Translations under genes and position numbers: made by a program | Shown here: positions 9,336-27,823 of the stretch, in pieces | Position numbering within the stretch: the first letter of the stretch is position 1 | Layout of the letters: each line of letters begins with the position of its first letter | Notes under the pieces: model-generated | Database searches by the model: none | The model's input: the letters and a program-made list of their open reading frames with translations, nothing else | What the model was told of the DNA's origin: nothing | NCBI GenBank assembly: GCA_963843145.1 | Contig: CAWJJC010000017.1 | Span: 32,001-96,000 of the forward strand | Reading direction: 5' to 3' | Source of the DNA: an uncultured delta proteobacterium | GTDB taxonomy: Bacteria > Desulfobacterota > RBG-13-43-22 | DNA: 64,000 bases

Positions 9336-11102
9336 CTATTTTACCTCCCCCAAACGAAGCACGGCATCAATCTCTTGGAGGATGGAATAGTTCTGGCGGG
9401 CGCTGCCGGCCGTCTCGACCAGGCCGACCAACCGCTGGGTGGCCGGCTTGAGCAGATGCCAGCCCCCGACCAAACGGACCAGGACTTGAAAGAGGAAGAA
9501 AGAAAGAAGACTCACTATGAGGATGGCGACGGTGGCGTGAAGAAAATATTCGGGGACCAGGGTCTGCTGCCAGAGAAAACTTTTTACACTTTGATAAGCA
9601 AAGAGCCCCATGACCGCCAAGGTCGGAAGATTGAAGATCAACTGCAGAATAAAACCGGATAGGTTTCCTACCCGGCGGTTCAGGGCCTCTTCCAAAGCGC
9701 CTTTCCAGGAAGAGGCCAGGCGCAGACGGAGGTCTTCCTCGTCCTGCAAGACCGCTTTGGCCTCGCGCACCCCCTGATTAAATCCCAGGGCAATCAGTCT
9801 TCCGGCCAAATCCGGCCAAACCTGCTGGATGGTAAAACGATATTTGAGCAAGACGGAAGCCATATCACCTCCTGCGGTGGCTTCTTCAACCGCCTGACGT
9901 GTCTTCCGGTAACGGACCAGGGAGGAAATCAAACCCCAGAGCTGCAGCAACGGGTTTCCAAAACGCAACGTGGCCAAAACACCGGCCCCGGCCATCAGAA
10001 ATCGGGCCCAGAGGGCCACCAGCCATCCTACCGGGCCCCACCAGCGATCGGCCAATTTTTGATAAAACAGGGCTTGTATCCCGCTCAACATCTCCTCCCC
10101 GCTTTCCTTCAGGGTTTCCGTTGCGGCCCTGGTCGCCTTTTGTTCCAGATCCAGGATGTCCTTTCTGATCTCCGTCAGTCTTTCCGGCACTCCCGCCAGG
10201 GTGTGCCGGACCGTTTGGTGTATCCATTCAACCAGATGGTCCGCCCTTTCCAGCCGAACGTCCACCAAGCGCCCTTCCTGGTTGAGGGTCCCGAAGATCT
10301 GATTATGGAGTTGCGGGTATTGATCGAAGCGATGTCCGGGTTTTTCGTCTTCCAGCCAGCCCGGCGCTTTCAAATGGTCGCGGGCACTGAGACAAAATAC
10401 GTGGTCGACCTTTCTTCGCCAGGAGGTCTCCAGATGGGTCTGGAGGTCCGGGAGGATAACGGTCTTTAATTCTTCTTCCGGCAGGCGGTCGCAGCGGTTC
10501 AAAACCACGTAAAGCGAGAGGCCGGGAAAGAGCTCAACGAACCGTTTAAGAAAAACGATGGTATCCCGGCGTTTGGGATTTTCGGCATTCAAGACACAGA
10601 CCAGCACGTCGGTCAGGGCGATGGTTTTCTCCAGAAGCGGATGAAAGGGCAGACTTTCCATGCTGTCCATATCCGGGGTGTCCACCAAGATGACCTGTTC
10701 CAATCCAGCCGCGAGCGGACGGGGCTCCACCTCGACCGCGGCCGGATCCAGGCCCTGAAGCAGGATTTCGGCATCAGCCCGGGATCGGCAGAAAACGACG
10801 ACACCTCTAGTGGTTGGCCGGTCGATTCCGACAGGGGAAAGGTGGTCTTCACCGGCCAGGGCGTTCAAGAGGGTCGATTTTCCGGCCCCGCTGGGACCGA
10901 CCAGGGTGACCACCAATTTGTGGACCAACCGTTCCTCCATTTTTTCCAGCAAATCGACGGCCGCTCGGCATTCCGACGATAGGGTCCGGCCGGGAATCCA
11001 GTGGCCGGCGGTTTCAGCCGTGGTCTGGATTTGTCTAATGGATTCCCTGGCGGCCGATAACCGCCCGCGGGCCTTAAGCGGATAGAAGTCGTCCTGGATC
11101 AT
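9336..11102 (-). CDS. dynamin-like/TRAFAC GTPase with C-terminal membrane helices (second of pair)
   Basis: G1 GPSGAGKST, G2 RPTTR, G3 DTPDMDS, G4 LNRCD; helical stalk and hydrophobic segments near the C-terminus. Confidence 0.8.
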   Translation of the reverse strand: MIQDDFYPLKARGRLSAARESIRQIQTTAETAGHWIPGRTLSSECRAAVDLLEKMEERLVHKLVVTLVGPSGAGKSTLLNALAGEDHLSPVGIDRPTTRGVVVFCRSRADAEILLQGLDPAAVEVEPRPLAAGLEQVILVDTPDMDSMESLPFHPLLEKTIALTDVLVCVLNAENPKRRDTIVFLKRFVELFPGLSLYVVLNRCDRLPEEELKTVILPDLQTHLETSWRRKVDHVFCLSARDHLKAPGWLEDEKPGHRFDQYPQLHNQIFGTLNQEGRLVDVRLERADHLVEWIHQTVRHTLAGVPERLTEIRKDILDLEQKATRAATETLKESGEEMLSGIQALFYQKLADRWWGPVGWLVALWARFLMAGAGVLATLRFGNPLLQLWGLISSLVRYRKTRQAVEEATAGGDMASVLLKYRFTIQQVWPDLAGRLIALGFNQGVREAKAVLQDEEDLRLRLASSWKGALEEALNRRVGNLSGFILQLIFNLPTLAVMGLFAYQSVKSFLWQQTLVPEYFLHATVAILIVSLLSFFLFQVLVRLVGGWHLLKPATQRLVGLVETAGSARQNYSILQEIDAVLRLGEVK

Positions 11103-13072
11103 CGGAGATAACCTCGCAATAAGTCCAGTTCTTTTTTAATTTCTTCAATTAATTGATCGAGGCCCCCTCTCATTTTTACTATTTCCTCGATCACACCGCC
11201 GGTAATGGTTTCTTCGAAGACTTCCCGAACGATAATGGCCCGGTTTTCTAGCCACCGTCTGACCACCGGCTCCAGCATGTCGGAAAGCTGTTTCCGTCCG
11301 GTTTCATCCAGGCCGGCCGAAGCGGGGATGGAAACCAGGGCCCATAAATCGTGCATACCGAAGATACCGTGAAGTTTGGCGTAAAGGCCGCTCCCGCCCA
11401 CCGGGTCACCGGTGGTCAGAATATAGGCGATACCGAGGGTGGCCGGTAAGACGTTCAACGAAGCAAAAAATGATTCACGGGTTCTTTGAAGAAAATTCAT
11501 TTGCAGACGGAATTCGTTAATCAGGCTGGTCAGCTCTGCGGTCAAAACGGCATCTTCGGAAATATCCAAAAGGTTTCGGGCCGTGGAAACAATCCGCTCG
11601 GAGGTAGCCGACCAGGGACGGCCCTCCAATGCTTTCCGGACGGCAGCGGTACCCTCGGGAGCAACCACGTGCAGGGTTACGGTTCCTCTGCTGGGGGCCA
11701 TCTGTCGAAAAGGCAACTGTATTTCCTTGGATCCCCGGTGTTGGCGAATATGATCGACCAGGGCGATCAGGCGGGACCCTTCCGGTTCTTTGGCCACGAT
11801 CTCGGCCACTAATTCCTCGGCCAGGAGGTGGTCACGCAGTTCCGAGGCCGCGCCCAGGAGGTTGGATTTGATTTCCTCCAGCGGATCGATCGGTTGGGCG
11901 AAAGAACCTTTTTGGGAGGCCTCATCCCCCTGGGCCAGGTTCAGTAGCGATAAAAGCATCCGGGCAGGTTTACCGAGGACGCTGCCCACGCCGCGGAAGA
12001 ACTTGAGGTGCGGCGGACTGGTTTCCAGCCAGAGATCATTCATGCTTTGGAGGATCTTCTTGACCGGAATAGAAACCAGGGATTGTTGAACGGCCCGCCC
12101 GAGGGCCAGTTGCAGCGTACCGACATACAGGTCGATCTCCTCCCGCGCGACCTTGGAGGTCTTCATGAGCTGCCGCACATAACCGACGAAGGCCTCCAGG
12201 GTAGAGAGAATCTGTCGTTCCCTGATGGCCCGCGGGTCCAGTCTTCGTAACAATTCCATCAAATCCGGTTCTCCGGAACGGATCGGTCGCGGATTCATGA
12301 AAGCCTGACCGGCGGCCACCTCGTCGCTGGTGTCGGTTCGGTAGGTGCCGATCAGATACTCCTCTTGGGCCGGCCCATATAAATTGGAGGCCGTGGTCTT
12401 CAAATGTTCTCTGGCCTGCTGGTCCTCGATCGTGCGGGAACAACTATAGACCAGGATTAAGCGCCGCATCCCGGTCTCGGTTAGAATCTGCCGCATAAAG
12501 CGGGTGTTCTCCAGATTGTTGTAGGTCGTATTGGTGACAATATAGATCAGGACGTTACAGGCCTCCAGCACCTCCCGGGCGATGGGACGGTTCAGATAAC
12601 GGTCGTCGGACCCGGTATCAAAGTCGGGGGTGTCCATCCAGACCTGATCCTGCGGCACATCCGGGTGGGACACCACCAGCGGCGGACCGGGCTCCAGCAG
12701 GGCCGTTGAATCCTCAAGGGTCTGGGGAATGAAACCAAAAGGCTCAAAGAGGTTTTCCATAAAGTTCTTCTGGCGGAGTATGACGGGGTGTATAGCCGCC
12801 AGAACACGGCGGGTGCTTCCGGCGTCACCTCGGGCCGGTGAGAGACGGATCTTCAACAGAGAATTAAACAAGGTGGACTTCCCTGAGTTGGCGCCACCGC
12901 AGACGGCCACCATGAGGGGCAGGCGTTTATCAATCAGCGGAAGCAGCTTGGCATCCAGGTTTCTCCACTGTTCGCTCGAATCCGGGTCACTGGTCCGGAT
13001 CAAATCGACCAGTCGGGGGAGAAGTTCGCGCAAATGGAGGAGCGGTTGTTTTAATTGATCAATGTTGGACAT
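11099..13072 (-). CDS. dynamin-like/TRAFAC GTPase (first of pair)
   Basis: G1 GGANSGKST, G2 GSTRR, G3 DTPDFD, atypical G4 region (YSCSR); hydrophobic hairpin near the C-terminus. Start reassigned to MSNIDQL (13072); ATGA overlap with the next gene. Confidence 0.78.
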   Translation of the reverse strand: MSNIDQLKQPLLHLRELLPRLVDLIRTSDPDSSEQWRNLDAKLLPLIDKRLPLMVAVCGGANSGKSTLFNSLLKIRLSPARGDAGSTRRVLAAIHPVILRQKNFMENLFEPFGFIPQTLEDSTALLEPGPPLVVSHPDVPQDQVWMDTPDFDTGSDDRYLNRPIAREVLEACNVLIYIVTNTTYNNLENTRFMRQILTETGMRRLILVYSCSRTIEDQQAREHLKTTASNLYGPAQEEYLIGTYRTDTSDEVAAGQAFMNPRPIRSGEPDLMELLRRLDPRAIRERQILSTLEAFVGYVRQLMKTSKVAREEIDLYVGTLQLALGRAVQQSLVSIPVKKILQSMNDLWLETSPPHLKFFRGVGSVLGKPARMLLSLLNLAQGDEASQKGSFAQPIDPLEEIKSNLLGAASELRDHLLAEELVAEIVAKEPEGSRLIALVDHIRQHRGSKEIQLPFRQMAPSRGTVTLHVVAPEGTAAVRKALEGRPWSATSERIVSTARNLLDISEDAVLTAELTSLINEFRLQMNFLQRTRESFFASLNVLPATLGIAYILTTGDPVGGSGLYAKLHGIFGMHDLWALVSIPASAGLDETGRKQLSDMLEPVVRRWLENRAIIVREVFEETITGGVIEEIVKMRGGLDQLIEEIKKELDLLRGYLR

Positions 13073-13257
13073 TGCCTTTTTTATGGTAAAAGGTGAGAAA
13101 AAGGGTTTCTCCTTGGATGTCCTGAGCGGAGGCGACCTCTCTCCGCAGAGTCGCCGGCCGGGAGAAGGCAACGGGTAGAATGATGACGGACATTCCAGGA
13201 AGCGCCGAGCCGACGGAAGGATCGGTTGGAGACTCCGTCATTGAAGTCCGATTTTAA

Positions 13258-14889
13258 TCAATTCATCGGAACGGGGATAAAGGGGGTTTTCAAGCCGATT
13301 ACGTTGTAGGCCATGACCGGTTCGCTGAAGCCTTTCACCTCCAGGGCACCGATTTCTTCCACCTCCACCAGATCCTCCACTTGAAAAAGGGTCTTGCGGC
13401 TGATCAGGATCTGGCCTCCCTTGGCTGCGGCGCATAATCGGGCGGCCAGGTTGGTGGTCTTCCCAATGGCGGCGTAGTCCATTCGCCCTTCGAAACCGAT
13501 ATTGCCCACATAAACGTAGCCGGTGGAAATCCCAAAGGATATATCCAGGGTATAGCCTAATTTGTTCCATTTGGCCCGCAGGTCGACCAAACGCTCCCGG
13601 GCGGCGGTGGCCATGGCCACCGCCCGGCGGGCATGATCCTTAAAACGGACCGGGGCGCCAAAAAAAACCATCACCCCATCCCCGGCAAACCGCTCCAGGG
13701 TCCCGTCAAATTCAAAAATTATTTCGCCGTACACGGCATGAAAGTCACTCAGCATGGCGATAATCTCTTCCGGTTCCGAAGTCTCCGAGAAATGGGTATA
13801 GTTCCGCAGATCGGAAAAGACGATAGAGACTTCCTGGCGGGTAGGCTTCAGAACGTGCGATTCATCACCGGACAGCACCGCCGCCACCAACTGGGGGGAA
13901 AGGTAGCGCTTCAGTCGGGTGATGCGTTCAGCCTCGGAGACATCCTCACTGACCCGCTTTTCCACCTGGGAGGTCACCAGAATGGCTTCTTTTCGCAACC
14001 GGTTCATTTCAATCATGTTGCGAATCCGCACCTGAAATTCCGTGAAATCCTGATGATGCAGGATTTCATCCACCCCGGAACGAATGAGGGTCTGGGCCTC
14101 GATCCAAGGCTCCCCATGGAGTAACAAGACAATGGGCATGTTTTGTGAATGGGAACGCAGTTCCTGATAAATTTCCAGAGGCTCCGGGATCTGATGGCAG
14201 AGCAGGATGCAATCGGGCAGAGGGTTCTCCAGGGCCGCCCGGACCTGATTTCGCTCGGTGGCCTGCCGGATCACCACCCCGGAAGCGACCAGCAGTTCAA
14301 GTTGCTGCTCAATTTTCGAACATCCGGGATGAATGACCAGAAGAGAAGGTGGTTCTTGGTTAGGGGGAAATCAGAGGAATGGAGGGTGCCAGGGGTTCCC
14401 CTATGGTCTTCGGCTTGCCCTCCGGCGATTTCTCCAGAGAAGGTCTCTCGGCTTCGCCCCCGACGATTTCTTCGGCCAAGGTTTTTCCGCCTTCTCCGGT
14501 TCAGCGGCTTGCGGTCGCCGGGCAGCCCTTGGATCGCTCTGCCTGAGCCCCGGATCCTGGGTCTGAGCCGGCGGAGCCGGAAGGACCGCTTCTCTTTCAG
14601 GGATCTGTTCCAGGACGATTTCCGACAGCCCCAGACGTATCTTATCTCCGGGATGCAGCAAGACCCGGGTAATCCGCTGTTCATTGACCAGGGTGCCGTT
14701 GGCGCTGTGCAAATCCTCCAAGAACAGCCCCTCGGACATCAGTTGCAGCAGGCAATGTTCCCGAGAAACCAGCGGGTCGTTGATGACCACTTCGCAATGA
14801 GGGGTCCGACCGATCCTGGCCAACGGTTTTTCTACGGTATAGATCCAACGCTTTCCGACAGATGGGGTAATTTGGAGTTTATAGAGCAT
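13258..14889 (-). CDS. FHA - linker - pseudo-receiver - class III nucleotide cyclase (probably one gene broken by indels; ORF track gives 14401..14889 and 13258..14277)
   Basis: FHA motifs IGR, SREH, SANGT. Cyclase motifs FSDLRNYT, ERFAGDG, GNIG..GRMDY, NLAARL. Both ORFs are in the same frame, separated only by TAG 14401 and TGA 14371, and an alternative frame gives a P/E/K-rich linker across the gap. Confidence 0.8.
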
Positions 14890-15012: not shown

Positions 15013-16251
15013 ATGGAATCCTCCACTATCCGCAAAGACTTCATCTTGCTGATCGCCAGCCGGGTTTTTACTCGGATCGGAGACGGCTTTTTGCGCATCC
15101 TCTCGGTCCTCCTGGTGGCCGCCAAAAGCCATGATCCCATGATCGCCGGCTTGGTGCTGGTGTTTCGCTATGTCTGCGAAATACTGATCAACGCCATATC
15201 CGGCCCCTTTATCGACAAACTGCATATTCGCACCTCCCTGATGGCCGCCGAGCTGCTGCGGACGATCCTGAGCCTGCTGCTGGTGGCGGCCGTGCTTCGG
15301 GGTTATCCCTACCCGGTTTATCTGGTCCTCTCTTTTTTGGGAGATTTTGTCTTTATTTTCTTTAAACCGGCGTCCGACAAGGTGGTTAAAGTCAATTTCC
15401 CGGTTAAGGAAGGAACCAAAGTCTTATCCCAGGTGGACGCCGCCAACCATTTCAGCAATATCGCGGGTTACGCCCTGGCCAGTCTGGTGTCCGGTTGGCT
15501 GGGGCTCAAAGTGGCGGTTCTTTGGGGACCGCCTCTATTCTTTATTTCCTTCCTGCTGGTCACCCGCCTACGACTGAGCGGAGAATCCGTCATCGATTAC
15601 CAGAGGGTCCGTAAAAAATCCTATTGGGCCAGCCAAAAAGAGGGGCTCCGCTATACCTGGGGCAAGAAACCGCTGCGGCTTTTATTAATCGGCCGCTCCC
15701 TGGTAGCGGTGGGCCGCGGCTCCTTTACCGTACTTTCGGTGGTTTACTTGGCCCACATGGCCAAGGGCCTGTCGTCCTACGGCTATTTTGAATCCGCCCA
15801 ATCCGCGGGCAAGGTGTTGGTCACCGCCCTGGTGATCCCTTTTTTCTTCGCTTACCGTTCTACCTTTTTTCTCACCGCGGTATCCCTGCTCGTCATCGGG
15901 GCGTCCTTCTTCGGCTTTAACCTGGTAAATGATATCTACCTGGCCTGTCTGGTGGGGGTCCTGGTAGGCGCCGGGCAGGCCTCCGAAGCCGTGGGGATTG
16001 ACGCCATGTTGAACCGCTACTCCGAGGCCCACATTCAGGGAAGGGCCAAATCCACCACCAGTTTCGGTAGTCGCATTTTTGGTTTGGCGGCCATGGGGGC
16101 GGTTTATCTACTGGTGACCACCTTTCAGGTCTCAGCCCGCACCCTTTTCGGCTGGCTGGGTATTTTCCCCGTTTTGGGATCCTTGGTGTTCTTTTTTGGC
16201 TGGAGGGCCGAAAAAGAGGAACGAAACAAAAATCTGTCCGCAGAGAGGTGA
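15013..16251 (+). CDS. MFS transporter (exporter-like)
   Basis: 412 aa with about 12 hydrophobic segments; GPFIDKL.IR motif-A-like loop; EGLRY and IQGRA motifs. Confidence 0.85.
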   Translation: MESSTIRKDFILLIASRVFTRIGDGFLRILSVLLVAAKSHDPMIAGLVLVFRYVCEILINAISGPFIDKLHIRTSLMAAELLRTILSLLLVAAVLRGYPYPVYLVLSFLGDFVFIFFKPASDKVVKVNFPVKEGTKVLSQVDAANHFSNIAGYALASLVSGWLGLKVAVLWGPPLFFISFLLVTRLRLSGESVIDYQRVRKKSYWASQKEGLRYTWGKKPLRLLLIGRSLVAVGRGSFTVLSVVYLAHMAKGLSSYGYFESAQSAGKVLVTALVIPFFFAYRSTFFLTAVSLLVIGASFFGFNLVNDIYLACLVGVLVGAGQASEAVGIDAMLNRYSEAHIQGRAKSTTSFGSRIFGLAAMGAVYLLVTTFQVSARTLFGWLGIFPVLGSLVFFFGWRAEKEERNKNLSAER

Positions 16252-17477
16252 CTATGACATCGGCCCAGAAACCCCTTCAAGCGTATGAAGCCCCGGAATT
16301 GGAAGATCAGGCCGTGGTTTTTTTTGAGGCCCTGCAACAGGCGGCCACCGCCGGGTTCAAGGAAAGCGATCAAGTCTACGGCGGAGTCACCCTGGGAATC
16401 AACCTGCCGCCTCTCGGGGAGGGGGATCGCGGCATCGTCTATCCGCTGCGTTCCCATTCGCTAACCCTCCCGGAAGCCCGGGGGCCTCTCTGCCTCAAGG
16501 TGGCCAAACAGCAGCCGGTTTGTCGAGAACGTCTCCTGGAAGAGGCCATGACCACGGAATTTTTCCTTTCCGAACAGGTGTACGTCCCTCGTATATATCA
16601 TTTGGATCCCTTAGGCCGTTTTTGCATCAAAGAATTTGTAGAGGGGGAATCCATTACCAGCCTTTATCTGCGTTTCAATGAATTATCGGTTAAAAGCCAG
16701 CAATTGATCCTGGAAGGCCTGGAAAAATTCTTAAACCGTCTTCTGGAATTATTCAAAAAGCGGCCCGATTGCAAAGTCAGCGTCAGCCCTAATAACATTT
16801 ATGTCTTGAGCGAAGGGGGGAAATTTAAAGATCCCACTCAATTTGTCTTGATCGATCCGGGGACCACCTTAAAAAAAAATTACGAAGGCTATACCTTCAA
16901 CAAGTACTGGAATGAAGTCCTGCCCGACCGCATCCGCAAATACCAGCGCACCGGTTACCTGCAGTGGCTGGTGCCTCAGGAAGTGACCCAATCCGAACGG
17001 GACGAGGCCAAGGAATTTGAAATTTTCCATGACCTGAAACCGGCGGAAATATTCCTGCTCCTAAAAACCGCCAAGACCATTGAATTCGAACCGGAGGAAA
17101 TCATCCTCCGGGAAGGGGCCATCGGGGAAAATTTTTACCTGATCCTGGAGGGGGAGGTAGAGGTGCGGCGGGGGCATTATTCCAAACCGGGTTCCTGGCA
17201 CCTGCGGATCGGACGGGGATCGGTCCTGGGGGAAATGGCCTTCCTGCTCCATGTCCCCCGGTCCATGACCGTCGTGGCCGCTACCCCCTGCAAATTGATC
17301 GAAATCGATCAGGACAAGTTCAACGAGCTTTTGGAGGCCAACCTCACGGCCCCCTATAAGCTCATCAAAAACATCTCGGTTATTTTGGCTGAACGGCTTT
17401 TCCAATTGACCGTCAAGCATGAAAAGGTTTTGGAGAATCATGATCCTAACGCCTCCGGGGAAACCTCCCATGGATGA
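16248..17477 (+). CDS. kinase-fold protein lacking the catalytic Asp, fused to a C-terminal cNMP-binding domain
   Basis: Kinase motifs LGEGDRGIVY, LCLKVAK, LLEE, KEFVEG, SVSPNNIYV, LIDPG. cNMP domain: ILREGAIGENFYLILEGEVEV, LGEMAFL...PRSMTV. GTGA overlap with the MFS gene. Confidence 0.8.
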   Translation: MTMTSAQKPLQAYEAPELEDQAVVFFEALQQAATAGFKESDQVYGGVTLGINLPPLGEGDRGIVYPLRSHSLTLPEARGPLCLKVAKQQPVCRERLLEEAMTTEFFLSEQVYVPRIYHLDPLGRFCIKEFVEGESITSLYLRFNELSVKSQQLILEGLEKFLNRLLELFKKRPDCKVSVSPNNIYVLSEGGKFKDPTQFVLIDPGTTLKKNYEGYTFNKYWNEVLPDRIRKYQRTGYLQWLVPQEVTQSERDEAKEFEIFHDLKPAEIFLLLKTAKTIEFEPEEIILREGAIGENFYLILEGEVEVRRGHYSKPGSWHLRIGRGSVLGEMAFLLHVPRSMTVVAATPCKLIEIDQDKFNELLEANLTAPYKLIKNISVILAERLFQLTVKHEKVLENHDPNASGETSHG

Positions 17478-18441
17478 ACCGAAACCCCATACGGAAATAT
17501 GCCCCCGTTGTGAGGAAGGTTTTTTAGTAACGGTTCAAACCCCTCAGGATATTACCATCGAAGGGTCCATTGTCCGTATCCCCAACGTCCAGGTGGATGA
17601 GTGCCGGGTTTGCGGCTTTCGCTCCCTTTCCGGCAGGGAAGTGGGCTTGTTCGAAATCCTTTTCGCTCCCCAGTATGCCCGAATCAGCGATTTGATCCTG
17701 GCCCTTCAGACCGCCGGTTATTACGGCATGTTCTTGAGGGAGGACCGGTCGGAAACTTTCATCGGCTTCGGGTCCCGGGATTACGTGGCCAACCTGGCGG
17801 AAGATCTGCGGGTCCTTTATCTGGATAACGAATCCAGCCACGTCATTCAGGGGCTGGGCGGCTTTCCCTCCGGGTTCATCCCCATCAACCTGGCCGGCAA
17901 TCATTATACCGTCAAGCTGCCCAGGATCGGGGAAGGGGAAAATGGGATCGTCTACGACTATCAGGAAGCCCCGCAGGCGGTCTTGAAACTCGCCAAACCC
18001 CGTCCCTACAGTCGAAATCATCTGAAGGAGGAATACGAGGTAACGGACTTTTTCGAAAGGCAGGGCGTTCCCGTACCGCGCATCCTGTTGAGCGATCCCT
18101 ACGGCAGCTTCATGATCAAAGAGCGTCTGGCCGGAGAGTCCCTGGCCAAAACCTATTTTTCCCTGGGTGGACCGGGCAATTCGGCCTATCGATTGGTCCG
18201 GGAGAGCGTGCAGGCCTTCATTGACCGGCTGATAGACCTTTTCGACAAAAACCCGGAAGTGAAAACCTCGGTCAGTCCCAATAATATTTTTGTTTTACTA
18301 AAGGGAAATGACTGCCAGTGCCTGTTGGTGGATACCGGTCCCGCCCCTTGCCACGATTATTCGGGGTTTAATTTCGACCACTACTGGGAAACGGTGATCC
18401 CGCAAAAGATCAAACAATATGCTGCCGCCGGGTATCTCTAG
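17470..18441 (+). CDS. YgiT/MqsA-type zinc finger fused to a kinase-fold domain lacking the catalytic Asp
   Basis: Start reassigned to MDEPK (17470), overlapping the previous stop. CPRC...IPNVQVDECRVCG finger; IGEGENGIVY, VLKLAK, LKEE, SVSPNNIFV, LVDTG. Confidence 0.78.
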   Translation: MDEPKPHTEICPRCEEGFLVTVQTPQDITIEGSIVRIPNVQVDECRVCGFRSLSGREVGLFEILFAPQYARISDLILALQTAGYYGMFLREDRSETFIGFGSRDYVANLAEDLRVLYLDNESSHVIQGLGGFPSGFIPINLAGNHYTVKLPRIGEGENGIVYDYQEAPQAVLKLAKPRPYSRNHLKEEYEVTDFFERQGVPVPRILLSDPYGSFMIKERLAGESLAKTYFSLGGPGNSAYRLVRESVQAFIDRLIDLFDKNPEVKTSVSPNNIFVLLKGNDCQCLLVDTGPAPCHDYSGFNFDHYWETVIPQKIKQYAAAGYL

Positions 18442-19328: not shown

Positions 19329-22127
19329 CTATTCATATCCGAAAATTTCCTTGATCTCCAGAGTCCGAGGGTGACCTCGACGGGTAAACTCCAGTCGCAG
19401 ATACCGTAGCCTTCGGCTCGGAAATCGTACGTCCCAGGTCTTTTCGCCGTCGCGGAGCAACCCCCACCCATCGAAATAAACCGGTCCGGACCAGGTCACC
19501 ACAGGGATCTCTTCCCAAAGAATTCCGTCCTGAGAAGCGGTTATCGTGGGGTGGATTCCTCCCCCCGGCGCCTCCAGGTCCACCCGAAGGCGCTGAATCG
19601 GCCGCAGGCTACCCAGGTCAATCCGGAGGTTCCCCTGCCCTTTGGTCCAATCGGGTTTCCATCCGGTTTGCCGCTTTCCATCCAGGACCGCCTTGACCTC
19701 TGCACCCGAGGCCAGCGCCGTGACCTTCCACTGATCCCGGGAAATAAGCCGATCCCTTTCCTTCCCGCCGTTAAAAATGATCAAGGTTCCTCCCTCGGCC
19801 GGGACCGCCATCCAGGCTGCCGGTTGCCCCGTTAACAGCGACCGGGTTTCTTCGTCATCGGCCTCCCTTTTTAAGAATAAAGCGGTCCCCTTTTGAAGGG
19901 CCGTTGGATTTATAACCGCCGGCGCGGGTCCGATCCGACCGCAGGAATTGACATACAGATTGGAAGGAACCGTTTGAATGGCCCCGTTGGAAAGTCGGTT
20001 GATCCGGGCGGACAACCAGGGATCGGCATAAAAATAACGGACTCCTTCCCGGTTCAATAGCGAGAGCAGTTTCGGTGGCGAAGGATTCTCCGCCGGCCGA
20101 GCTCCCGGGCGGTAAATGAAAATTTCATTGGCCGACCAGGAACGAACGGAGGTCTTCCCCTCTTGGACAAAGCGAAGATAACGAAGGTCACGGGGAGGAA
20201 AAACGACCTGGACCCTCCCCCGTCGGACTTTCAAGTAGGCCTGAGGCCCGGCGGAAAAAAACGGGCCTATATAATCAGAAATCTCTGCCAGAGATAGCCA
20301 GTTTCTCCCGTCCAGGGATCCTTCCAACCGAAAGCTCTGAGGGATATCCTGCCAGAGGGGGACCCCAAGATCCATCCGCCCGAGGCGTTCTCGTTTACCC
20401 AGATCGACGGTGACCCATTGGCCCGGCTCCTGTGGTCCGTTGGTGGTCCATCCGCTGGCCGCATCCCGGTCGGCTAAGTTGCCCGCCGCGCTTGGATTGG
20501 GATGGACCGTCAGGGTCCAATCGCGGGGGGATACGGCCTCATAATCCTGGATGGTCTTCCCTTGATACCGGATCACGACAAACGGTCCTATTTGGTCTAC
20601 CTCCGGTTGCCAACCCAAGGCTTTTAAGGTACTCGTAATCCCCCGGGTCAACTGGTCGTTTCCAGCAGGCTGCCAGCCCGTCACCCAAGGAGGTTTATCG
20701 GCCCCATCCACCAGGACGGCCAAGGGGAGGTATTCCTCCCGCCAGGGATCGGCAGCCACGATTTTTCCTCCGGTCAGGAAGGTAAATTCATACGAGGTGA
20801 TCCCGGGCGCCTCTTCCACATAAATCCTACGCAGGCCGCGATCCTCTAACCACTGTCTGAGGGGGGCCGTTTGCCGCCTCAACGCCTCCCAGCGCCTCTC
20901 CGCGGGGGGTACCGAACCAGCGGTATCCTGCCAATTGATCCAGGATTGGAATCCGAGCCATCCGGCCAGCACCCCGATGGCCAGGGCTTTTTTCCGATTC
21001 AGCGCTCGTTCCAGGGCCTCCCCCATCCAGACCGGCAATACGGAATAGAAGGGCAGCAGGTAGCGGATGCCCGTACCGCCGATCTCCCCTCCTCGCGGGG
21101 TAAATAGGACCAGGACCAGATTCGAGGCCAAAATCCCCCACAAAATAATCCTGCCGGCCCCGGGCAACGACCGCAGACCCACCACCCAGGCCATTTCCCC
21201 GGCATCCCGCCTGAGGGCCGAAGCCAGGGCGAACGTTCCGAAAAGCACCAGAAATACCGCCACCGCCACCTGGACCGGCCTCCCCAATCTATCCGGCTCA
21301 AACCCCAACAACCGGGGGAAGCTTTCCGTCAAGAGCAGGATTCCCCTATCCGCCAATCCGATCGGGGCCCCTCCCACACGGAAGGTGGCCAGTCGGGCGG
21401 AAGGGAAGTGACCCAGTTCATAGAGCCACATCGGCAGGCTCCCCCCCAAAAAGCCCAGGGGAAAGAACCAGAACCGTTTTCCAAACCCCAAACGGGTCCG
21501 CAGGGCCAGCAAACCCAGGGGGATCAAATACACCACAATCAACAAGTTGTTCCACCAGCCTAATCCGCCCAGGAGACCGGCCGCCAGCCAATCAGCCGGC
21601 GCATTTCTCCGGCCGAAGAACAGGGAGCGGGTCAGGAGCAGCAACAGGTTTCCGAGCAGCAACAGGAGGGGATAGTTCAAATTCCCGTTCAGGCTCCACT
21701 GATTGAGCAACAGGGCCGGGACCGCCGAGAGGAGGGCATAACAGGCGGCGGCCCGTCTCCCGGAAAATCTCCGGGCCACCAAATAGCCGGTCCCCCAGAG
21801 GGTGAGACCGGCCCCGTAGGCGAAGCAGTCCAGGGCCAGGGGCGAGGCCCCGAAGATTAGGAACCAGGGCGCCAGCAGGTAGGAGGGGAAAGCTCCCATA
21901 TATTCCACCCCCAATTGGTGAATGGGGAAATCTCCCTGGAGAATACCCAGGGCCGGGACCGCCAGGCGGACTTCATCCCAATGGGCCCAAAGCCCGAAAT
22001 GGCCCCAAAAACGGAGCCCGCGGGAGGCCAGGCCCCCCAGGACCAGGATCCCGAGCCACAACCACCCGGACCTTATTCCGGCCGGACGATTCATTGGGGT
22101 GGGAACAGCCTGGGCATTCATGATCAT
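19329..22127 (-). CDS. multi-TM GT-C-fold (ArnT/PMT-like) glycosyltransferase with C-terminal F5/8 discoidin domains
   Basis: W-D-E motif after the first TM and many TM helices; discoidin signatures ADRD..SGWTT..PQ.PGQWVTVDLG, SLDGRNW, RYLR. The 5' extension to 22292 is encoded by a repeat, so the start was moved. Confidence 0.75.
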   Translation of the reverse strand: MIMNAQAVPTPMNRPAGIRSGWLWLGILVLGGLASRGLRFWGHFGLWAHWDEVRLAVPALGILQGDFPIHQLGVEYMGAFPSYLLAPWFLIFGASPLALDCFAYGAGLTLWGTGYLVARRFSGRRAAACYALLSAVPALLLNQWSLNGNLNYPLLLLLGNLLLLLTRSLFFGRRNAPADWLAAGLLGGLGWWNNLLIVVYLIPLGLLALRTRLGFGKRFWFFPLGFLGGSLPMWLYELGHFPSARLATFRVGGAPIGLADRGILLLTESFPRLLGFEPDRLGRPVQVAVAVFLVLFGTFALASALRRDAGEMAWVVGLRSLPGAGRIILWGILASNLVLVLFTPRGGEIGGTGIRYLLPFYSVLPVWMGEALERALNRKKALAIGVLAGWLGFQSWINWQDTAGSVPPAERRWEALRRQTAPLRQWLEDRGLRRIYVEEAPGITSYEFTFLTGGKIVAADPWREEYLPLAVLVDGADKPPWVTGWQPAGNDQLTRGITSTLKALGWQPEVDQIGPFVVIRYQGKTIQDYEAVSPRDWTLTVHPNPSAAGNLADRDAASGWTTNGPQEPGQWVTVDLGKRERLGRMDLGVPLWQDIPQSFRLEGSLDGRNWLSLAEISDYIGPFFSAGPQAYLKVRRGRVQVVFPPRDLRYLRFVQEGKTSVRSWSANEIFIYRPGARPAENPSPPKLLSLLNREGVRYFYADPWLSARINRLSNGAIQTVPSNLYVNSCGRIGPAPAVINPTALQKGTALFLKREADDEETRSLLTGQPAAWMAVPAEGGTLIIFNGGKERDRLISRDQWKVTALASGAEVKAVLDGKRQTGWKPDWTKGQGNLRIDLGSLRPIQRLRVDLEAPGGGIHPTITASQDGILWEEIPVVTWSGPVYFDGWGLLRDGEKTWDVRFPSRRLRYLRLEFTRRGHPRTLEIKEIFGYE

Positions 22128-22160
22128 CCTGCTCGTCTCCGCCTCTATTATCTTCTTTCT

Positions 22161-22268
22161 ACGCTTTGCCCTTTTGGGTGGGTACCCCCCCGAGATCTGG
22201 TATGGCCGTGGGGTCTCGGCGAAAGGGTTTTCCAAAGGTACTCCGGACTTCGAATCCGGGCCTAAATT
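22161..22268. repeat. ~105 bp dispersed repeat (family C)
   Basis: Nearly identical to 27025..27128 (GCCCTTTTGGGTGGGTACCCCCC..AGATCTGGTATGGCCG..GGGTCTCGGCGAAAGGG..TTCCAAAGGTACTCCGGACTTCGAA.CCGGGCCTAAA). Confidence 0.9.
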
Positions 22269-22415
22269 ACTAACTTTTTCAGTTCCGTTCAATAAGAAGC
22301 CGGCCTATTTTACATTTGCGTGCTTAATAAAAATACTATAAAAATGAGGAATGCCGCTCGAAAAAAAAATTACCGCGGATAATATGAAGACAAACATCAT
22401 CCTCCGAATATTCTT

Positions 22416-23639
22416 ATGAAAATCGAAACGGTCAGAAAAGTTGATTACTGGATTGGCATCCCGGTCTGCCTCCTGCTTTCCATCCTGGGTTGGGCCCGGA
22501 GCAGGCTTTTCCCAAAAAAAGAGCCGGGCCGGGCGTTAAAAAAATTCCTGCTCATCGAGCTGTCCGAAATGGGCAGCGCCATTCTGGCCTATCCAACGAT
22601 TAAGGCCATTCAGCGAGATTATCCCGAAGCCGAGCTGTATTTTATGATTTTTGAAAAGAACCGGGCCAGTGTGGACATCCTGAATCTCGTCCAGAGGGAA
22701 AACGTCTTGACGATCCGTGAGAAATCCCTGGGATCTTTTCTGGGCGATGTGGTTAAAACGGTGGTCCGAATGCACCGGGAAGGAATCGACGTGGTCTTCG
22801 ATCTGGAACTGTTCACCCGGGTGACGGCCATCCTGACCTTTCTAAGCGGCGCCCCGGTCCGGGTGGGCTTTCACAGATTCCGGATGGAGGGATTATACCG
22901 GGGAAATCTGCACACCCATAAAATCCAGTACAACTTTCAGCAGCATATCAGCAAGTCCTTTCTGTCCTTTTTGGACGTGCTCCGCTACCCGACCAAGGAC
23001 TGGCCGACTATGGACGCGGCCATTCCGGACAGCCGTCTGGAAACGGCCTTGTATCAGGCTTCGGAATCGGGAAAAATCCGGATCCGGGAAAAAATCCGAA
23101 AACGGTTTCCAGAATTCGGCGAATCCACTCAGATCGTCATTTTAAATCCCAGCGCCGGGGAAATCCCTATCCGGGCCTGGCCTCTGGAAAATTATGTAGA
23201 GCTAGCTCACCGATTATTGCAAGACCCCCACCGGATCGTCGTCCTCATGGGAGCCGGCGCGGACCAGGAAACCACCGGCCGACTGGCGGAAAAGTTGTCT
23301 GATCAGCGCTGCCTGGATCTGACCGGCGAGACCACCTTTGAAGAGTTGATGGACCTATTCTGCGTCTCGGAGGCCTTGATCACCAACGACAGCGGCCCGG
23401 CCCACTTCGCGTCTTTGACCGGGATAAGAAATTTTGTTTTCCTCGGTCCCGAGTCCCCTTATCTTTACAGCCCTTTGGGCGAAAACACCCACGTTTTTTA
23501 TTCGAAATTCCCCTGCTCTCCCTGCCTGACCGCCTTCAACCACCGCCACACCTCCTGCCTGGACAACAAATGCCTCCAGGCCATCTCGGTGCCGGAAGTC
23601 TGGGAAGTGATCACCGAAAAACTATCCCGCGTTAAATAA
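22416..23639 (+). CDS. glycosyltransferase family 9 (heptosyltransferase-like)
   Basis: SEMGSAIL, RAWP.ENY, DLTGETT, ITNDSGPAH and C-terminal CSPC...C..NKCL. Confidence 0.88.
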   Translation: MKIETVRKVDYWIGIPVCLLLSILGWARSRLFPKKEPGRALKKFLLIELSEMGSAILAYPTIKAIQRDYPEAELYFMIFEKNRASVDILNLVQRENVLTIREKSLGSFLGDVVKTVVRMHREGIDVVFDLELFTRVTAILTFLSGAPVRVGFHRFRMEGLYRGNLHTHKIQYNFQQHISKSFLSFLDVLRYPTKDWPTMDAAIPDSRLETALYQASESGKIRIREKIRKRFPEFGESTQIVILNPSAGEIPIRAWPLENYVELAHRLLQDPHRIVVLMGAGADQETTGRLAEKLSDQRCLDLTGETTFEELMDLFCVSEALITNDSGPAHFASLTGIRNFVFLGPESPYLYSPLGENTHVFYSKFPCSPCLTAFNHRHTSCLDNKCLQAISVPEVWEVITEKLSRVK

Positions 23640-25349: not shown

Positions 25350-25537
25350 TTACAGTTGACGAATACCTGAAAACCTGCAAGAGGATCGGGCGAGAACCGG
25401 AAAAGCCTTTCTCCGGTCGGTTCATGGTGCGGATTCCTTCCGAGCTGCATTGTGCCATTGCCCTGGCGGCCAAGAGGGAACGCAAGAGCATCAACGCCTG
25501 GATCGCCGAAATTTGTGAACAAAACGTTTTTGCTTAG
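25350..25537 (+). pseudogene. C-terminal part of a HicB-family antitoxin
   Basis: VDEYL..CKRIGREPEKPFSGRFMVRIPSELH..IA.AA.R..KSINAW is the HicB/RHH C-terminus; the N-terminal part is not recognisable and there is no hicA. Confidence 0.7.
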
Positions 25538-26982
25538 CCTTTCACCACCCCAAGCGGCCGGAGCCGCGCCACCTTTTTAGAAATCCCGGCGCCGTGAACC
25601 ACCTCCACCACCTGGGCCACGTCCTTATAGGCCTCGGAGATCTCTTCCACCACCGTGCCCATTCCAGCCCCCCGGACGATGATCCCCTTATCTTCCAGCT
25701 CCCGGAGGACGGCATGACCCCGGGCGGCTTTTTTAGCAGCCTGGCGGCTCATGACCCGTCCGGCGCCGTGGCAGGTGCTGCCGAAGGTCTCGGCATAGGC
25801 CTGTTGGGTCCCCAACAGCACATAGGAGTAACGACCCATATCCCCGGGGATGATCACCGGTTGCCCCAGTTCAAAAAAATCAGGAGGGATCTGGGGGTGA
25901 CGGGGAGGAAAGGCCCGGGTGGCTCCCTTGCGGTGAACGCACAGCCGTCTGATTTTCCCTTCAACCAAGTGATCTTCAAACTTGGCAATGTTATGGCACA
26001 GGTCATAAATCAATTCCAGTCGAAGATCCTTCGGTCCGCGTTGCAAGACCCGCTCCAGGGTTTCCTGGACCCAGTGGGTAATGATCTGCCGGTTGGCAAA
26101 GGCGAAATTAGCCGCCGCCGCCATGGCCCCCAGATAGTCCTGCCCTTCCGGGGAATTGATGGGGGCGCAGCACAATTGCCGGTCCGGGAGCTCGATGCCA
26201 TACTTGGCCGTGGCCCGGATAAGCTGTTTGATGGAATCGTCGCAGACCTGATGGCCCAGCCCCCGGGAGCCGGTATGCACCATAACCGTCACCTGATCTT
26301 CAAAAAGCCCCAGGGCCCGGGCCGCCGCCGTTTCATAAATCGTTTCCACGTAGCCCACTTCCACAAAATGATTCCCCGATCCCAGGGTTCCTAACTGGTC
26401 CTTCCCCCGTTCCAGCGCCCTGTTGGAAACGAGGTCCGGCCGAGCCCCTTCGATGCACCCCGCCTCTTCAATATGTTCCAGATCCTTGGGCGATCCATAG
26501 CCCTGCCGAACGGCCCATTGAGCCCCCTGCTGGAGGACCTTTTCCTGGTCTTTCGGAGAAAGTTTAAAGTCCTTGCGGTGGGACCCGACCCCGGAAGGGA
26601 TGTTGCGGAACAGGGCGTCCACGATTTCTTTCATTTTTCCTTGAAGGTCATGGCGGCTCAACCCGGAGCGCAGCAGACGCACGCCTCAGTTGATATCATA
26701 GCCCACCCCGCCAGGGGAAACGATCCCCTCCGCAGGGTCAAAGGCCGCTACTCCGCCGATGGGAAACCCGTACCCCCAGTGGATGTCCGGCATGGCCAGG
26801 GAATTCCCCACGATCCCCGGCAGCCAGGCCACGTTAGCCACCTGGTTCAGGCTCTGGTCCTTCCGGATATCCGGCAACAGCTCCGGAGAAGTGAAAACCA
26901 GGCCGTCGGTCCGCATCTTCCCCTCCCGGGGGATTCGAAATCGATAAGGATCGATTTGTTCCATCTTGATTTTATCCGCCAT
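25534..26982 (-). CDS. rtcB: RtcB RNA ligase, 482 aa, in-frame TGA at codon 99 (putative selenocysteine)
   Basis: The two ORF-track pieces are in one frame: [60 protein letters not shown] and the terminal VVKG are all intact. Confidence 0.93.
26656..26669 (-). promoter_or_regulatory. candidate SECIS hairpin in rtcB
   Basis: GCTC-CGGGTT-GAGC beginning 16 nt after the UGA, extendable by GGCG...CGCC pairing. Confidence 0.55.
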
Positions 26983-27352: not shown

Positions 27353-27823
27353 CTAAATATCAAAAATCACCCTGGCCCGCCAGCCTTTCGGGGTTTCCCG
27401 AATCTGCACTTGGTGATAGGTTACGGCCTTAACCCCGTGTTTGAAACCGTGCCGTTCCGGATCGTAATCCTCCCCCCAAACCCGGGCCTTCAGCGACCGA
27501 TCGTTCAGCTCCTCGATTTCAAAACGGCTGAAAACCAGACGGCGGGCGTCGAATAAATACAATAGTTCTCCCAGCCAGGCCACCAGCAGGGCCTCGCGAT
27601 CCGGCGCTTCGACCGAGACCTCCAGCGGTTTTATCGGTTTAATCTTCCGGACGTCCACCAGGAGGTCAAAAAAAGCCCAGGCCGATTGCTCGAAAAGGTC
27701 AGCCCGGTCTTTGCCTTGAACCGTCATCCCCAGGTCCCCGGTGTGGCTGATTAAGCGATAGGGCTTCCGGCTGAAAGTCATGGGGCTATTGTAACCCAAG
27801 GCAGTTTCTTCTTGCAATCTCAC
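27353..27823 (-). CDS. archease (RtcB activating cofactor)
   Basis: YRLISHTGD, L..WLGELLY, VKAVTYH and C-terminal VIFDI; the real start is probably MTFSRK. Confidence 0.92.
   Translation of the reverse strand: MRLQEETALGYNSPMTFSRKPYRLISHTGDLGMTVQGKDRADLFEQSAWAFFDLLVDVRKIKPIKPLEVSVEAPDREALLVAWLGELLYLFDARRLVFSRFEIEELNDRSLKARVWGEDYDPERHGFKHGVKAVTYHQVQIRETPKGWRARVIFDI

Follow-up and report, generated by a model that had tools for sequence, protein, structure and literature searches.

Two paralogous minimal kinase-like domains with serine at the catalytic aspartate position, encoded with a predicted cyclic-nucleotide sensor and a membrane protein in an uncultured delta proteobacterium

The gene set and its two kinase-like domains

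We analysed a 64,000-nucleotide stretch of DNA from an uncultured delta proteobacterium (contig CAWJJC010000017.1, positions 32,001 to 96,000; hereafter the window), in which a gene for a membrane protein of the major facilitator superfamily (MFS) is followed on the same strand by two open reading frames, ORF1 and ORF2 (Table 1). Each encodes a minimal kinase-like domain in which the position of the catalytic aspartate is occupied by serine, and the rest of the residues expected to bind Mg-ATP are kept. In ORF1 this domain is joined to a C-terminal domain predicted to bind cyclic nucleoside monophosphates (cNMP), and in ORF2 it follows a zinc ribbon. The MFS protein also aligns with the NCBIfam model TIGR00900 (E-value 2.2e-32), below the cut-off of that model.

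The stop codon of the MFS gene (16249-16251) lies 2 nucleotides before an ATG at 16254, or overlaps ORF1 by 4 nucleotides if translation begins at the GTG at 16248. The ATG is probably the true start, because a GAGAGG Shine-Dalgarno site lies 7 nucleotides upstream of it and its methionine is kept in at least 90% of the aligned homologues; the protein would then have 407 amino acids, instead of the 409 obtained from the GTG. For ORF2, the listed start at 17419, which the initial annotation of this DNA used, is probably too early. The most likely start is the ATG at 17470, since it yields the 323 amino acids found in most homologues, and this ATG overlaps the ORF1 stop codon (17475-17477) by 8 nucleotides. 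With each gene abutting or overlapping the next, the three are therefore read as a translationally coupled set.

Table 1. Positions of the genes, domains and key codons within the window
Feature	Positions	Strand	Basis or remark
MFS membrane protein gene, 412 amino acids	15013..16251	+	First gene of the coupled set; Pfam MFS_1, E-value 5.8e-17
ORF1: N-terminal minimal kinase-like domain and C-terminal cNMP-binding domain	16248..17477	+	
ORF1 kinase-like domain, residues ~16-239	16293..16964	+	AlphaFold2 model, VIA-align, invariant columns
ORF1 Ser178 codon, catalytic (HRD) Asp position	16779..16781	+	hhalign register
ORF1 cNMP-binding domain, residues 278-365	17079..17342	+	Pfam PF00027
ORF2, 323 amino acids: zinc ribbon, poorly modelled linker, paralogous kinase-like domain	17470..18441	+	
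ORF2 four-Cys zinc ribbon, YgiT/MqsA type (C11, C14, C45, C48)	17500..17613	+	TIGR03831
ORF2 kinase-like domain, residues ~111-323	17800..18438	+	AlphaFold2 model, Foldseek, VIA-align
ORF2 Ser267 codon, catalytic Asp position	18268..18270	+	hhalign register
Small FHA-domain protein gene, 162 amino acids, divergent from the MFS gene	14401..14889	-	Pfam FHA, E-value 9.7e-21
Class III adenylate/guanylate cyclase gene, weak receiver-like N-terminus	13258..14277	-	Pfam Guanylate_cyc, E-value 4.1e-21; Response_reg, E-value 0.14

The initial annotation had described the two domains as paralogous kinase folds lacking most of the C-lobe, and the analysis bears this out. BLASTP aligns ORF1 and ORF2 over 188 residues at 40% identity (E-value 6e-41), which defines a common domain of about 190 residues, and all the motifs it had quoted are in place: the Gly loops GEGDRGIVY (ORF1) and GEGENGIVY (ORF2), the beta3 strands LKVAK and LKLAK, the catalytic loops KVSVSPNN (16773-16796) and KTSVSPNN (18262-18285), and the metal-binding motifs LIDPG (16848-16862) and LVDTG (18325-18339). 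In residue numbers, ORF1 presents the Gly loop G57-E-G-D-R-G62, the beta3 lysine K84 with a second invariant lysine K87, the alphaC glutamate E99, the loop K176-N183 and D203-P-G; the corresponding elements of ORF2 are G154-E-G-E-N-G159, K173, K176, E188, K265-N272 and D288-T-G. Both domains stop 35 residues past the DxG aspartate, in a common tail of the form Y..F..YW....P..I..Y...GY[LI]. The statement on the C-lobe holds for the part after DxG, where the models contain a short loop and one long helix and nothing more, while the alphaE helix, the catalytic loop and beta7-beta8 are all present.

These models were obtained with AlphaFold2 from family alignments and have a mean predicted local distance difference test score (pLDDT) of 82.4 for ORF1 and 79.1 for ORF2, mostly about 90 or higher in the kinase-like parts and below 50 in ORF2 residues 55-96. 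Comparison of the ORF2 model with the PDB by Foldseek gave NleH2 as the top match (E-value 8.2e-6), followed by Bud32, APH(2'') and Rio2. An exhaustive VIA-align search ranked APH(2'') first (Z 9.7 over 171 residues, root-mean-square deviation 3.6), then Rio2 (9.5), Bud32 (9.3) and Rio1 (9.1), with NleH1 (8.4), OspG (8.0) and HopBF1 (7.7) further down, and all 50 of the 50 matches listed are kinase-fold proteins. For the kinase-like domain of ORF1 (residues ~18-233) the same method gave APH(2'') (Z 11.4), RIOK3 (11.3) and Bud32 (11.2), over 171-174 aligned residues. Submitted whole to Foldseek, the ORF1 model matched cNMP domains only, and the kinase-like part surfaced only in the wide VIA-align search. 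Taken together, the models place both domains in the minimal kinase fold, in the size class of RIO, Bud32 and NleH.

At the level of sequence the resemblance is far weaker. A phmmer search of ORF1 against PDB sequences found cNMP domains only, and a profile of the ORF2 family found nothing significant in the PDB, the best match being NleH1 (E-value 0.22, N-lobe only). Among Pfam models, the kinase-like part of ORF1 matches ABC1 at an E-value of 0.051. ORF2 reaches 22.2 bits against APH (PF01636; cut-off 23.2), over the N-lobe only (residues 185-244), and 23.2 bits in the scan of its own genome; the same model is matched by 6 of 22 family members (best E-value 5.7e-7). Neither ORF matches PF00069 at an E-value of 1 or less, and among the 22 members one does (E-value 0.16), one matches Kdo (E-value 0.071) and none matches RIO1. 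SelO and SidJ are not among the Foldseek, VIA-align and PDB-profile matches listed, which does not rule out a likeness to them.

The second domain of ORF1 is readily recognised. PF00027 matches it at 69.5 bits (cut-off 27.5; E-value 2.5e-19), the closest PDB sequences are the regulatory domains of PKA and PKG (E-value 1e-21), and its fold matches cyclic-nucleotide-binding domains with Z up to 14.8 in VIA-align. The phosphate-binding cassette G-E-M-A-F...P-R-S is intact, with G328, E329, P337, R338 and S339 at least 90% conserved, so that the domain is predicted to be an intact-looking cNMP sensor. The zinc ribbon of ORF2 is a marginal match to TIGR03831 (20.6 bits, cut-off 20.2); the cysteines of its two CxxC pairs are invariant in 48 sequences.

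Register and conservation of the serine

To place the serine in the kinase framework we relied on a profile-profile comparison. As a Pfam RIO1 scan of the window's genome found nothing, and thus offered no RIO loci as controls, the Hanks kinases of the same genome, which has seven canonical ones elsewhere, were used instead. The family alignment (A3) holds 22 domain-only sequences, namely the two window domains, 17 from diverse loci and three distant single-domain relatives. The kinase alignment (A4) holds eight Pkinase domains, of which a related locus, L034, contributed one and the window's own genome the other seven. hhalign aligned the two with a probability of 97.1% (E-value 5.1e-11, 133 columns), pairing K-V-S-V-S-P-N-N with H-R-D-I-K-P-T-N and L-I-D-P-G with V-M-D-F-G, together with the Gly loops and the beta3 lysines. 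This register puts Ser178 and Ser267 at the catalytic Asp, as first proposed, Asn183 and Asn272 at the metal-binding Asn, and Asp203 and Asp288 at the DFG Asp.

We then aligned all collected family proteins to the A3 profile and counted the rows with a residue at each column. Serine stands at the catalytic-Asp position in 121 of 121 ORF1-type proteins, in all 118 ORF2-type proteins with a residue there (2 are truncated) and in 21 of 23 library representatives. The two non-serine representatives are both fragments: P0244, which has an out-of-frame end, and P0261, of 113 amino acids, with alanine. No row among the ORF1-type, ORF2-type and representative proteins has aspartate at this position. 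On two of the three points that the initial annotation had named as possible refutations, the residue in homologues and the kinase-like nature of the fold, its reading stands. The residues around it are held as tightly: the beta3 lysine in 118 of 118 ORF1-type proteins with a residue, 120 of 120 ORF2-type and 26 of 26 representatives with a residue; the alphaC glutamate in 119 of 119, 120 of 120 and 25 of 26, counted likewise; the catalytic-loop asparagine and the DxG aspartate each in 121 of 121 and 118 of 118, and in 22 of 24 and 20 of 20 representatives, respectively.

The DNA agrees. Among 100 copies of the motif in the window and related loci, 99 encode serine, and the single exception, ARPRSPNN, has the look of a local frame error. 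Both codon families are in use at the Asp position of the ORF1-type copies (AGY in 24, TCN in 29), and likewise at the second serine of the SVSPNN motif. Since a change between AGY and TCN takes two substitutions, the use of both, on top of the invariance in homologues, implies that serine itself is held by selection, as the initial annotation had argued against an error.

Other invariant positions give the domain a signature of its own. The second lysine, three residues past the beta3 lysine (KxxK), is invariant across A3, and three tyrosines of the C-terminal tail are invariant across the superfamily alignment. The only invariant acidic residues in A3 are the alphaC Glu and the DxG Asp, and therefore no substitute base is conserved at the sequence level. 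ORF2 proteins have an invariant pair of their own, His295-Asp296, seven to eight residues past the DxG aspartate; ORF1 has Lys-Asn there, and the pair is also missing from a distant branch of the family described below.

Distribution of the family and genomic context

A word-indexed search found 172 homologues of ORF1 (120 listed, at 63-95% identity) and 187 of ORF2 (120 listed, at 57-94% identity, mostly of 323 amino acids), with depositor labels that include Thermodesulfobacteriota, Deltaproteobacteria, Acidobacteriota/Thermoanaerobaculaceae, Riflebacteria and Syntrophobacteraceae. An exhaustive phmmer search with the ORF1 domain against 1.84 billion representatives returned 33 matches at an E-value of 1e-3 or less. 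Among 401 sampled genomes of the window's phylum, 7 carry the domain, the window's genome included; each of the seven has exactly two adjacent copies, as the window's genome itself has two and no more, and all belong to one family, in which 6 of the 13 other genomes are carriers. To judge from these searches, the family appears small and patchy, and strongly conserved. A sequencing error, a pseudogene or chance open reading frames were considered as explanations and rejected, given that the frames are open, the homologues listed are 57-95% identical and the copies are paired.

The distant branch consists of proteins of 232-700 amino acids with signal-peptide-like N-termini and one or two tandem copies of the domain (P0254, P0255, P0259, P0264, P0265, P0268 and P0269). 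The motifs that it keeps are S-[LVIY]-[SAN]-P-N-N, G-x-G-x-R-G, K-x-x-K and [IL]-I-D-x-G. A maximum-likelihood tree of 32 domains, rooted at the midpoint only and with three long-branch rows, sets this branch apart from the ORF1 and ORF2 domains with support 100/99. Its N- and C-terminal domains group inside the branch, and the duplication is therefore independent of the one that gave rise to ORF1 and ORF2. Two independent duplications that keep the copies together suggest that the domain may work in pairs. A search for longer forms found one fusion, P0273 (823 amino acids), in which an MFS protein and ORF1 are joined in frame; the same query brought up no fusion of ORF1 with ORF2, a negative of little weight in view of the limits of the search. 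Another candidate longer form, P0002 (554 amino acids), was rejected, as about 145 residues of its kinase-like domain are repeated internally and it is probably an assembly artefact.

The initial annotation had left out the MFS gene coupled to ORF1, the FHA domain that persists near the pair and the adjacent cyclase, and this context is what most constrains the function. We compared 64 related loci (9 genome contigs and 55 metagenome contigs), many of them close kin and hence not independent. ORF2 follows ORF1 in 51 of them by a strict filter, and also in L071 and L075; of those left, ten end at a contig edge and one (L073) has only a 93-residue fragment. Of the 42 loci with at least 1300 nucleotides of upstream sequence, 23 have the MFS gene immediately upstream of ORF1, at 65-93% identity.

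An FHA domain is found near the pair in 17 of the 21 related loci with enough flank, and in three arrangements. In the window and its close relatives it is a small divergent gene beside the class III cyclase gene. In two loci it forms a C-terminal tail on the MFS protein (L047:1-624; L049:1-1215), with ORF1 a few bases on. In the third arrangement it is the N-terminus of a protein of about 1000 amino acids encoded directly downstream, which combines FHA, cNMP-binding, sigma-54-type AAA+ and Fer4_5 regions; tblastn detects this protein in 11 of 31 loci, and it accounts for 4 of the 5 large downstream open reading frames scanned with Pfam.

The four examples of the latter (L040:10462-13500, L042:5821-8946, L050:10233-13250 and L056:10253-13372) have an AAA+ lid and a Fer4_5 region resembling the membrane iron-sulfur proteins NapH and NosR. 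No DNA-binding domain was detected in this protein, an odd architecture for a sigma-54-type ATPase. At the locus that contributed to A4, the gene after ORF2 (L034:10669-13695) encodes 1008 amino acids with a weak Pkinase match (29.9 bits, below the cut-off) and the motifs H-G-N and G-F-G; this protein is likely a pseudokinase itself.

Parts of the cyclase, FHA, MFS, ORF1 and ORF2 genes are covered by contigs from four RNA libraries (three studies); most of these contigs are 88-95% identical to the window and, at this identity, would derive from relatives. The ORF1/ORF2 junction is bridged in two cases (X18 record 15, 16898-17981; X20 record 32, 17354-17702). The contigs give a weak hint that the module is transcribed, as RNA libraries may also contain DNA. 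None of 20 read runs holds half or more of the sampled words of the stretch; the best share is 0.27, and the four RNA-library runs have 0.05-0.09.

Elsewhere in the window, two adjacent genes for large GTPases (9336-11099 and 11099-13171, both on the reverse strand) have dynamin-family N-terminal matches and look like a bacterial dynamin-like pair. They stand in the same-strand block as the cyclase and FHA genes; their membership of the module was looked at in one close relative (L003) only. Further along, an RtcB RNA ligase gene (25534-26679, reverse strand) lies near an archease gene (27353-27820, reverse strand), a usual partnership, and a gene at 27870-30353 (forward strand) encodes an 828-residue protein with an MFS-like membrane region and a spermidine-synthase-like domain. 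A 987-residue membrane protein (19329-22292, reverse strand) combines a PMT_2-type glycosyltransferase region with F5/8 type C (discoidin) domains and adjoins a heptosyltransferase-family gene (22416-23636).

Possible chemistry of the pair

In the superfamily of protein-kinase-like (PKL) proteins ten key residues are recognised, and Asp-166 (PKA numbering throughout) is among the few that are common to nearly all of its families (PMC1821047). Its predicted fold, together with five out of six residues of the catalytic core, assigns the ORF1/ORF2 family to this superfamily. In both paralogue families the equivalents of G52, K72, E91, N171 and D184 vary little or not at all, the H164 position is Lys or Gln, and the region expected to hold D220 is missing. 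With K72 and D184 kept and D166 replaced by serine, the family is therefore a pseudokinase by the bioinformatic definition, the loss of K72, D166 or D184 (PMC12599244). As judged by those models, it falls outside PF00069, RIO, Bud32/Kdo and ABC1, and the APH match is confined to the N-lobe.

Compared with Hanks kinases, ORF1 and ORF2 lack the activation segment (DFG...APE) and the alphaF-alphaI substrate-binding lobe. They share with RIO1/RIO2, Bud32 (of KEOPS), NleH/OspG/HopBF1 and APH(2'') a bilobal fold in which the C-lobe is truncated and the activation segment missing, and the Gly loop, beta3 Lys, alphaC Glu, catalytic-loop Asn and metal Asp are kept in the same way (Z 9.1-11.4 over 167-188 aligned residues for the best minimal-kinase matches). 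RIO and Bud32 are ATPase switches and not kinases in the classical sense. As far as is known, all these proteins retain the catalytic Asp (H-x-D), whereas here it is serine, and the likeness is one of fold with no significant sequence match; nor do they have a fusion to a cNMP domain or zinc ribbon, or occur as adjacent paralogous pairs.

A functional parallel may be found in HER3 and the JH2 domain of JAK2, in which the catalytic Asp is likewise replaced and the beta3 Lys, N171 and D184 are retained; they bind ATP with one Mg, transfer little or no phosphate and exert an allosteric effect when dimerised with a paralogous domain (PMC4718504). In HER3, where Asn stands at Asp-166, ATP is bound at about 1 uM through a single Mg that N171 and D184 hold, and trans-autophosphorylation is no more than weak; JAK2 JH2 has low activity (PMC4718504). 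These are full-length eukaryotic domains that have Asn and an active-kinase partner, in contrast to the serine, the minimal fold and the two base-less copies found here. The conserved bacterial pseudokinase families ActPs1-3, GLW, CP1, DYD and DLHK also have substituted catalytic residues, and their function is unknown (PMC12599244; 10.1101/2025.01.12.632604). All seven were drawn from the homologues of PF00069 and have some members in which the VAIK lysine is substituted (10.1101/2025.01.12.632604), unlike the present family, which PF00069 does not find and which keeps both this lysine and the DFG Asp.

The architecture has parallels of another kind. Like the PKA holoenzyme and PKG, ORF1 couples a kinase fold to a PKA-R/PKG-type cyclic-nucleotide-binding domain, with the differences that the fold is minimal and base-less, that it precedes a single sensor domain, and that the system is bacterial with a second, zinc-ribbon paralogue. 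Operons of the pknF-Rv1747 type combine a Hanks kinase with an FHA-bearing ABC transporter. Here too a transporter, an FHA reader (in L047 and L049 a fusion to the tail of the transporter) and kinase-fold genes share one operon, with an MFS protein instead of an ABC transporter, kinase folds that lack the catalytic Asp, and an added cNMP input. A full-text literature search gave no description of the family, leaving aside preprint supplementary tables, where it may appear under another name. The available text of PMC12599244 has no mention of cyclic nucleotide, cNMP, zinc or MFS, the same terms are absent from that of the bacterial serine/threonine kinase atlas (10.1101/2025.01.12.632604; PF00069 homologues, supplementary tables aside), and the available part of a 2026 preprint on new kinase-like domains (10.64898/2026.09.18.752743) does not mention cNMP, zinc or MFS. 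The ORF1/ORF2 family is thus apparently undescribed; base-less nucleotide-binding kinase folds as such are already known, and it is the architecture and context that are unusual.

We propose a tentative mechanism. ORF1 and ORF2 would be an obligately paired duplicate of a minimal kinase-like domain, predicted to bind Mg-ATP and devoid of a catalytic base. Both domains would bind Mg-ATP, and this binding, with at most slow hydrolysis or autophosphorylation, would drive a conformational or assembly change. As input, cAMP or cGMP from the adjacent cyclase, the likely source of the sensed nucleotide, would bind the C-terminal sensor of ORF1 and thereby gate it. The target would be the co-translated MFS protein, with the pair acting on its cytoplasmic side, and the FHA domain would recognise phosphothreonine within the same circuit. 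As to the chemistry, a nucleotide-dependent switch of the HER3/JAK2-JH2/RIO/Bud32 kind, with hydrolysis or autophosphorylation slow at best, is the reading that we find plausible, if slightly short of probable. In its favour we count the fold, the register, the conservation, the selection on serine, the cNMP sensor, the coupling of the genes, the links to the MFS protein and FHA domain, the repeated occurrence of the domain in duplicate (as in the tandem branch) and the precedent set by HER3 and JAK2 JH2. The MFS link is drawn from the adjacency described above and the single natural MFS-ORF1 fusion.

Several observations weigh against this switch. Invariant metal ligands and an invariant KxxK over such deep divergence exceed the constraint usual for binding only, and point toward real catalysis. 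A constant FHA partner calls for a source of phosphothreonine somewhere, ORF1 and ORF2 being obvious candidates. MFS adjacency holds for only 23 of 42 loci that are not independent, and the RIO and Bud32 ATPases need their catalytic Asp, so that they are imperfect precedents. Finally, the distant-branch proteins, if truly exported, would meet little ATP, which is odd for an ATP binder.

One alternative is that ORF1 and ORF2 are real Ser/Thr kinases, transferring phosphate to themselves or in trans, base-free or with a substitute such as His295-Asp296 of ORF2, switched on by cNMP and making the phosphothreonine that FHA reads. Every ATP and Mg residue is invariant, and the FHA domain is kept in all three arrangements, including the MFS-tail fusion just before ORF1, which follows the logic of the kinase-plus-FHA-transporter operons. 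HER3 and JAK2 JH2 indicate that residual activity is possible when Asp-166 is lost (PMC4718504). The invariant H-D pair could serve ORF2, yet ORF1 has K-N in its place and the distant branch lacks it, which leaves no family-wide substitute base. The models, moreover, have no activation segment or substrate-binding C-lobe, the seven canonical Hanks kinases of the genome could supply the phosphothreonine, and nothing accounts for selection holding Ser over Asp if efficient transfer is the aim. We therefore regard a genuine kinase pair as unlikely, though it is the strongest competitor of the switch.

Slightly less likely still, in our opinion, is a kinase fold re-purposed for AMPylation, nucleotidyl or amino-acid transfer, for an acidic or small-molecule acceptor related to the MFS protein, or with the serine as a covalent phospho-acceptor. 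SelO and SidJ establish that kinase folds can perform other chemistry (AMPylation and amino-acid transfer). An active site tuned to something specific would account for the invariant Ser, the KxxK lysine and the three tail tyrosines; the gene is coupled to a transporter, and the closest structural matches include a small-molecule kinase, APH(2'') (Z 9.7 and 11.4). APH enzymes, on the other hand, use a catalytic Asp, SelO and SidJ are missing from the matches listed (the caveat given above applies), and a cNMP sensor, a cyclase and an FHA domain suit regulation more than metabolism. A bolder version, which we consider improbable, would make the invariant serine the working residue of a new kinase-fold chemistry, either as a covalent phospho- or nucleotidyl-serine or in a base-free transfer to a non-hydroxyl acceptor; the two sites would act jointly, switched by cAMP or cGMP, to gate the MFS protein and make the mark that FHA reads. 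The remaining idea, that ORF1 and ORF2 are pure scaffolds that bind no nucleotide and keep the motifs for fold stability or protein contacts, has many scaffold-type pseudokinases behind it (PMC12599244, PMC4718504), as well as the little ATP that the tandem-domain relatives with signal-peptide-like N-termini would meet outside the cell, but we judge it very improbable, because non-binding pseudokinases usually lose the Gly loop, beta3 Lys, N171 and D184, all near-invariant in both paralogues here, and the reviewed bacterial families lose the VAIK lysine (PMC12599244, 10.1101/2025.01.12.632604) that ORF1 and ORF2 keep.

The family thus offers a deep bacterial lineage in which Asp-166 has become Ser in every informative ORF1- and ORF2-type sequence examined, while the rest of the Mg-ATP set is kept. 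That two co-inherited paralogues and a secreted branch with an independent duplication of its own share the substitution amounts to a natural experiment on what a kinase fold does when its base is gone. One small operon would tie cyclic nucleotide, ATP and phosphothreonine to one another and to a membrane transporter. The hypothesis lends itself to testing with two soluble proteins, 323 and about 407 residues long. As the family is small and patchy (33 of 1.84 billion representatives; 7 of 401 genomes), its interest is mechanistic, not ecological.

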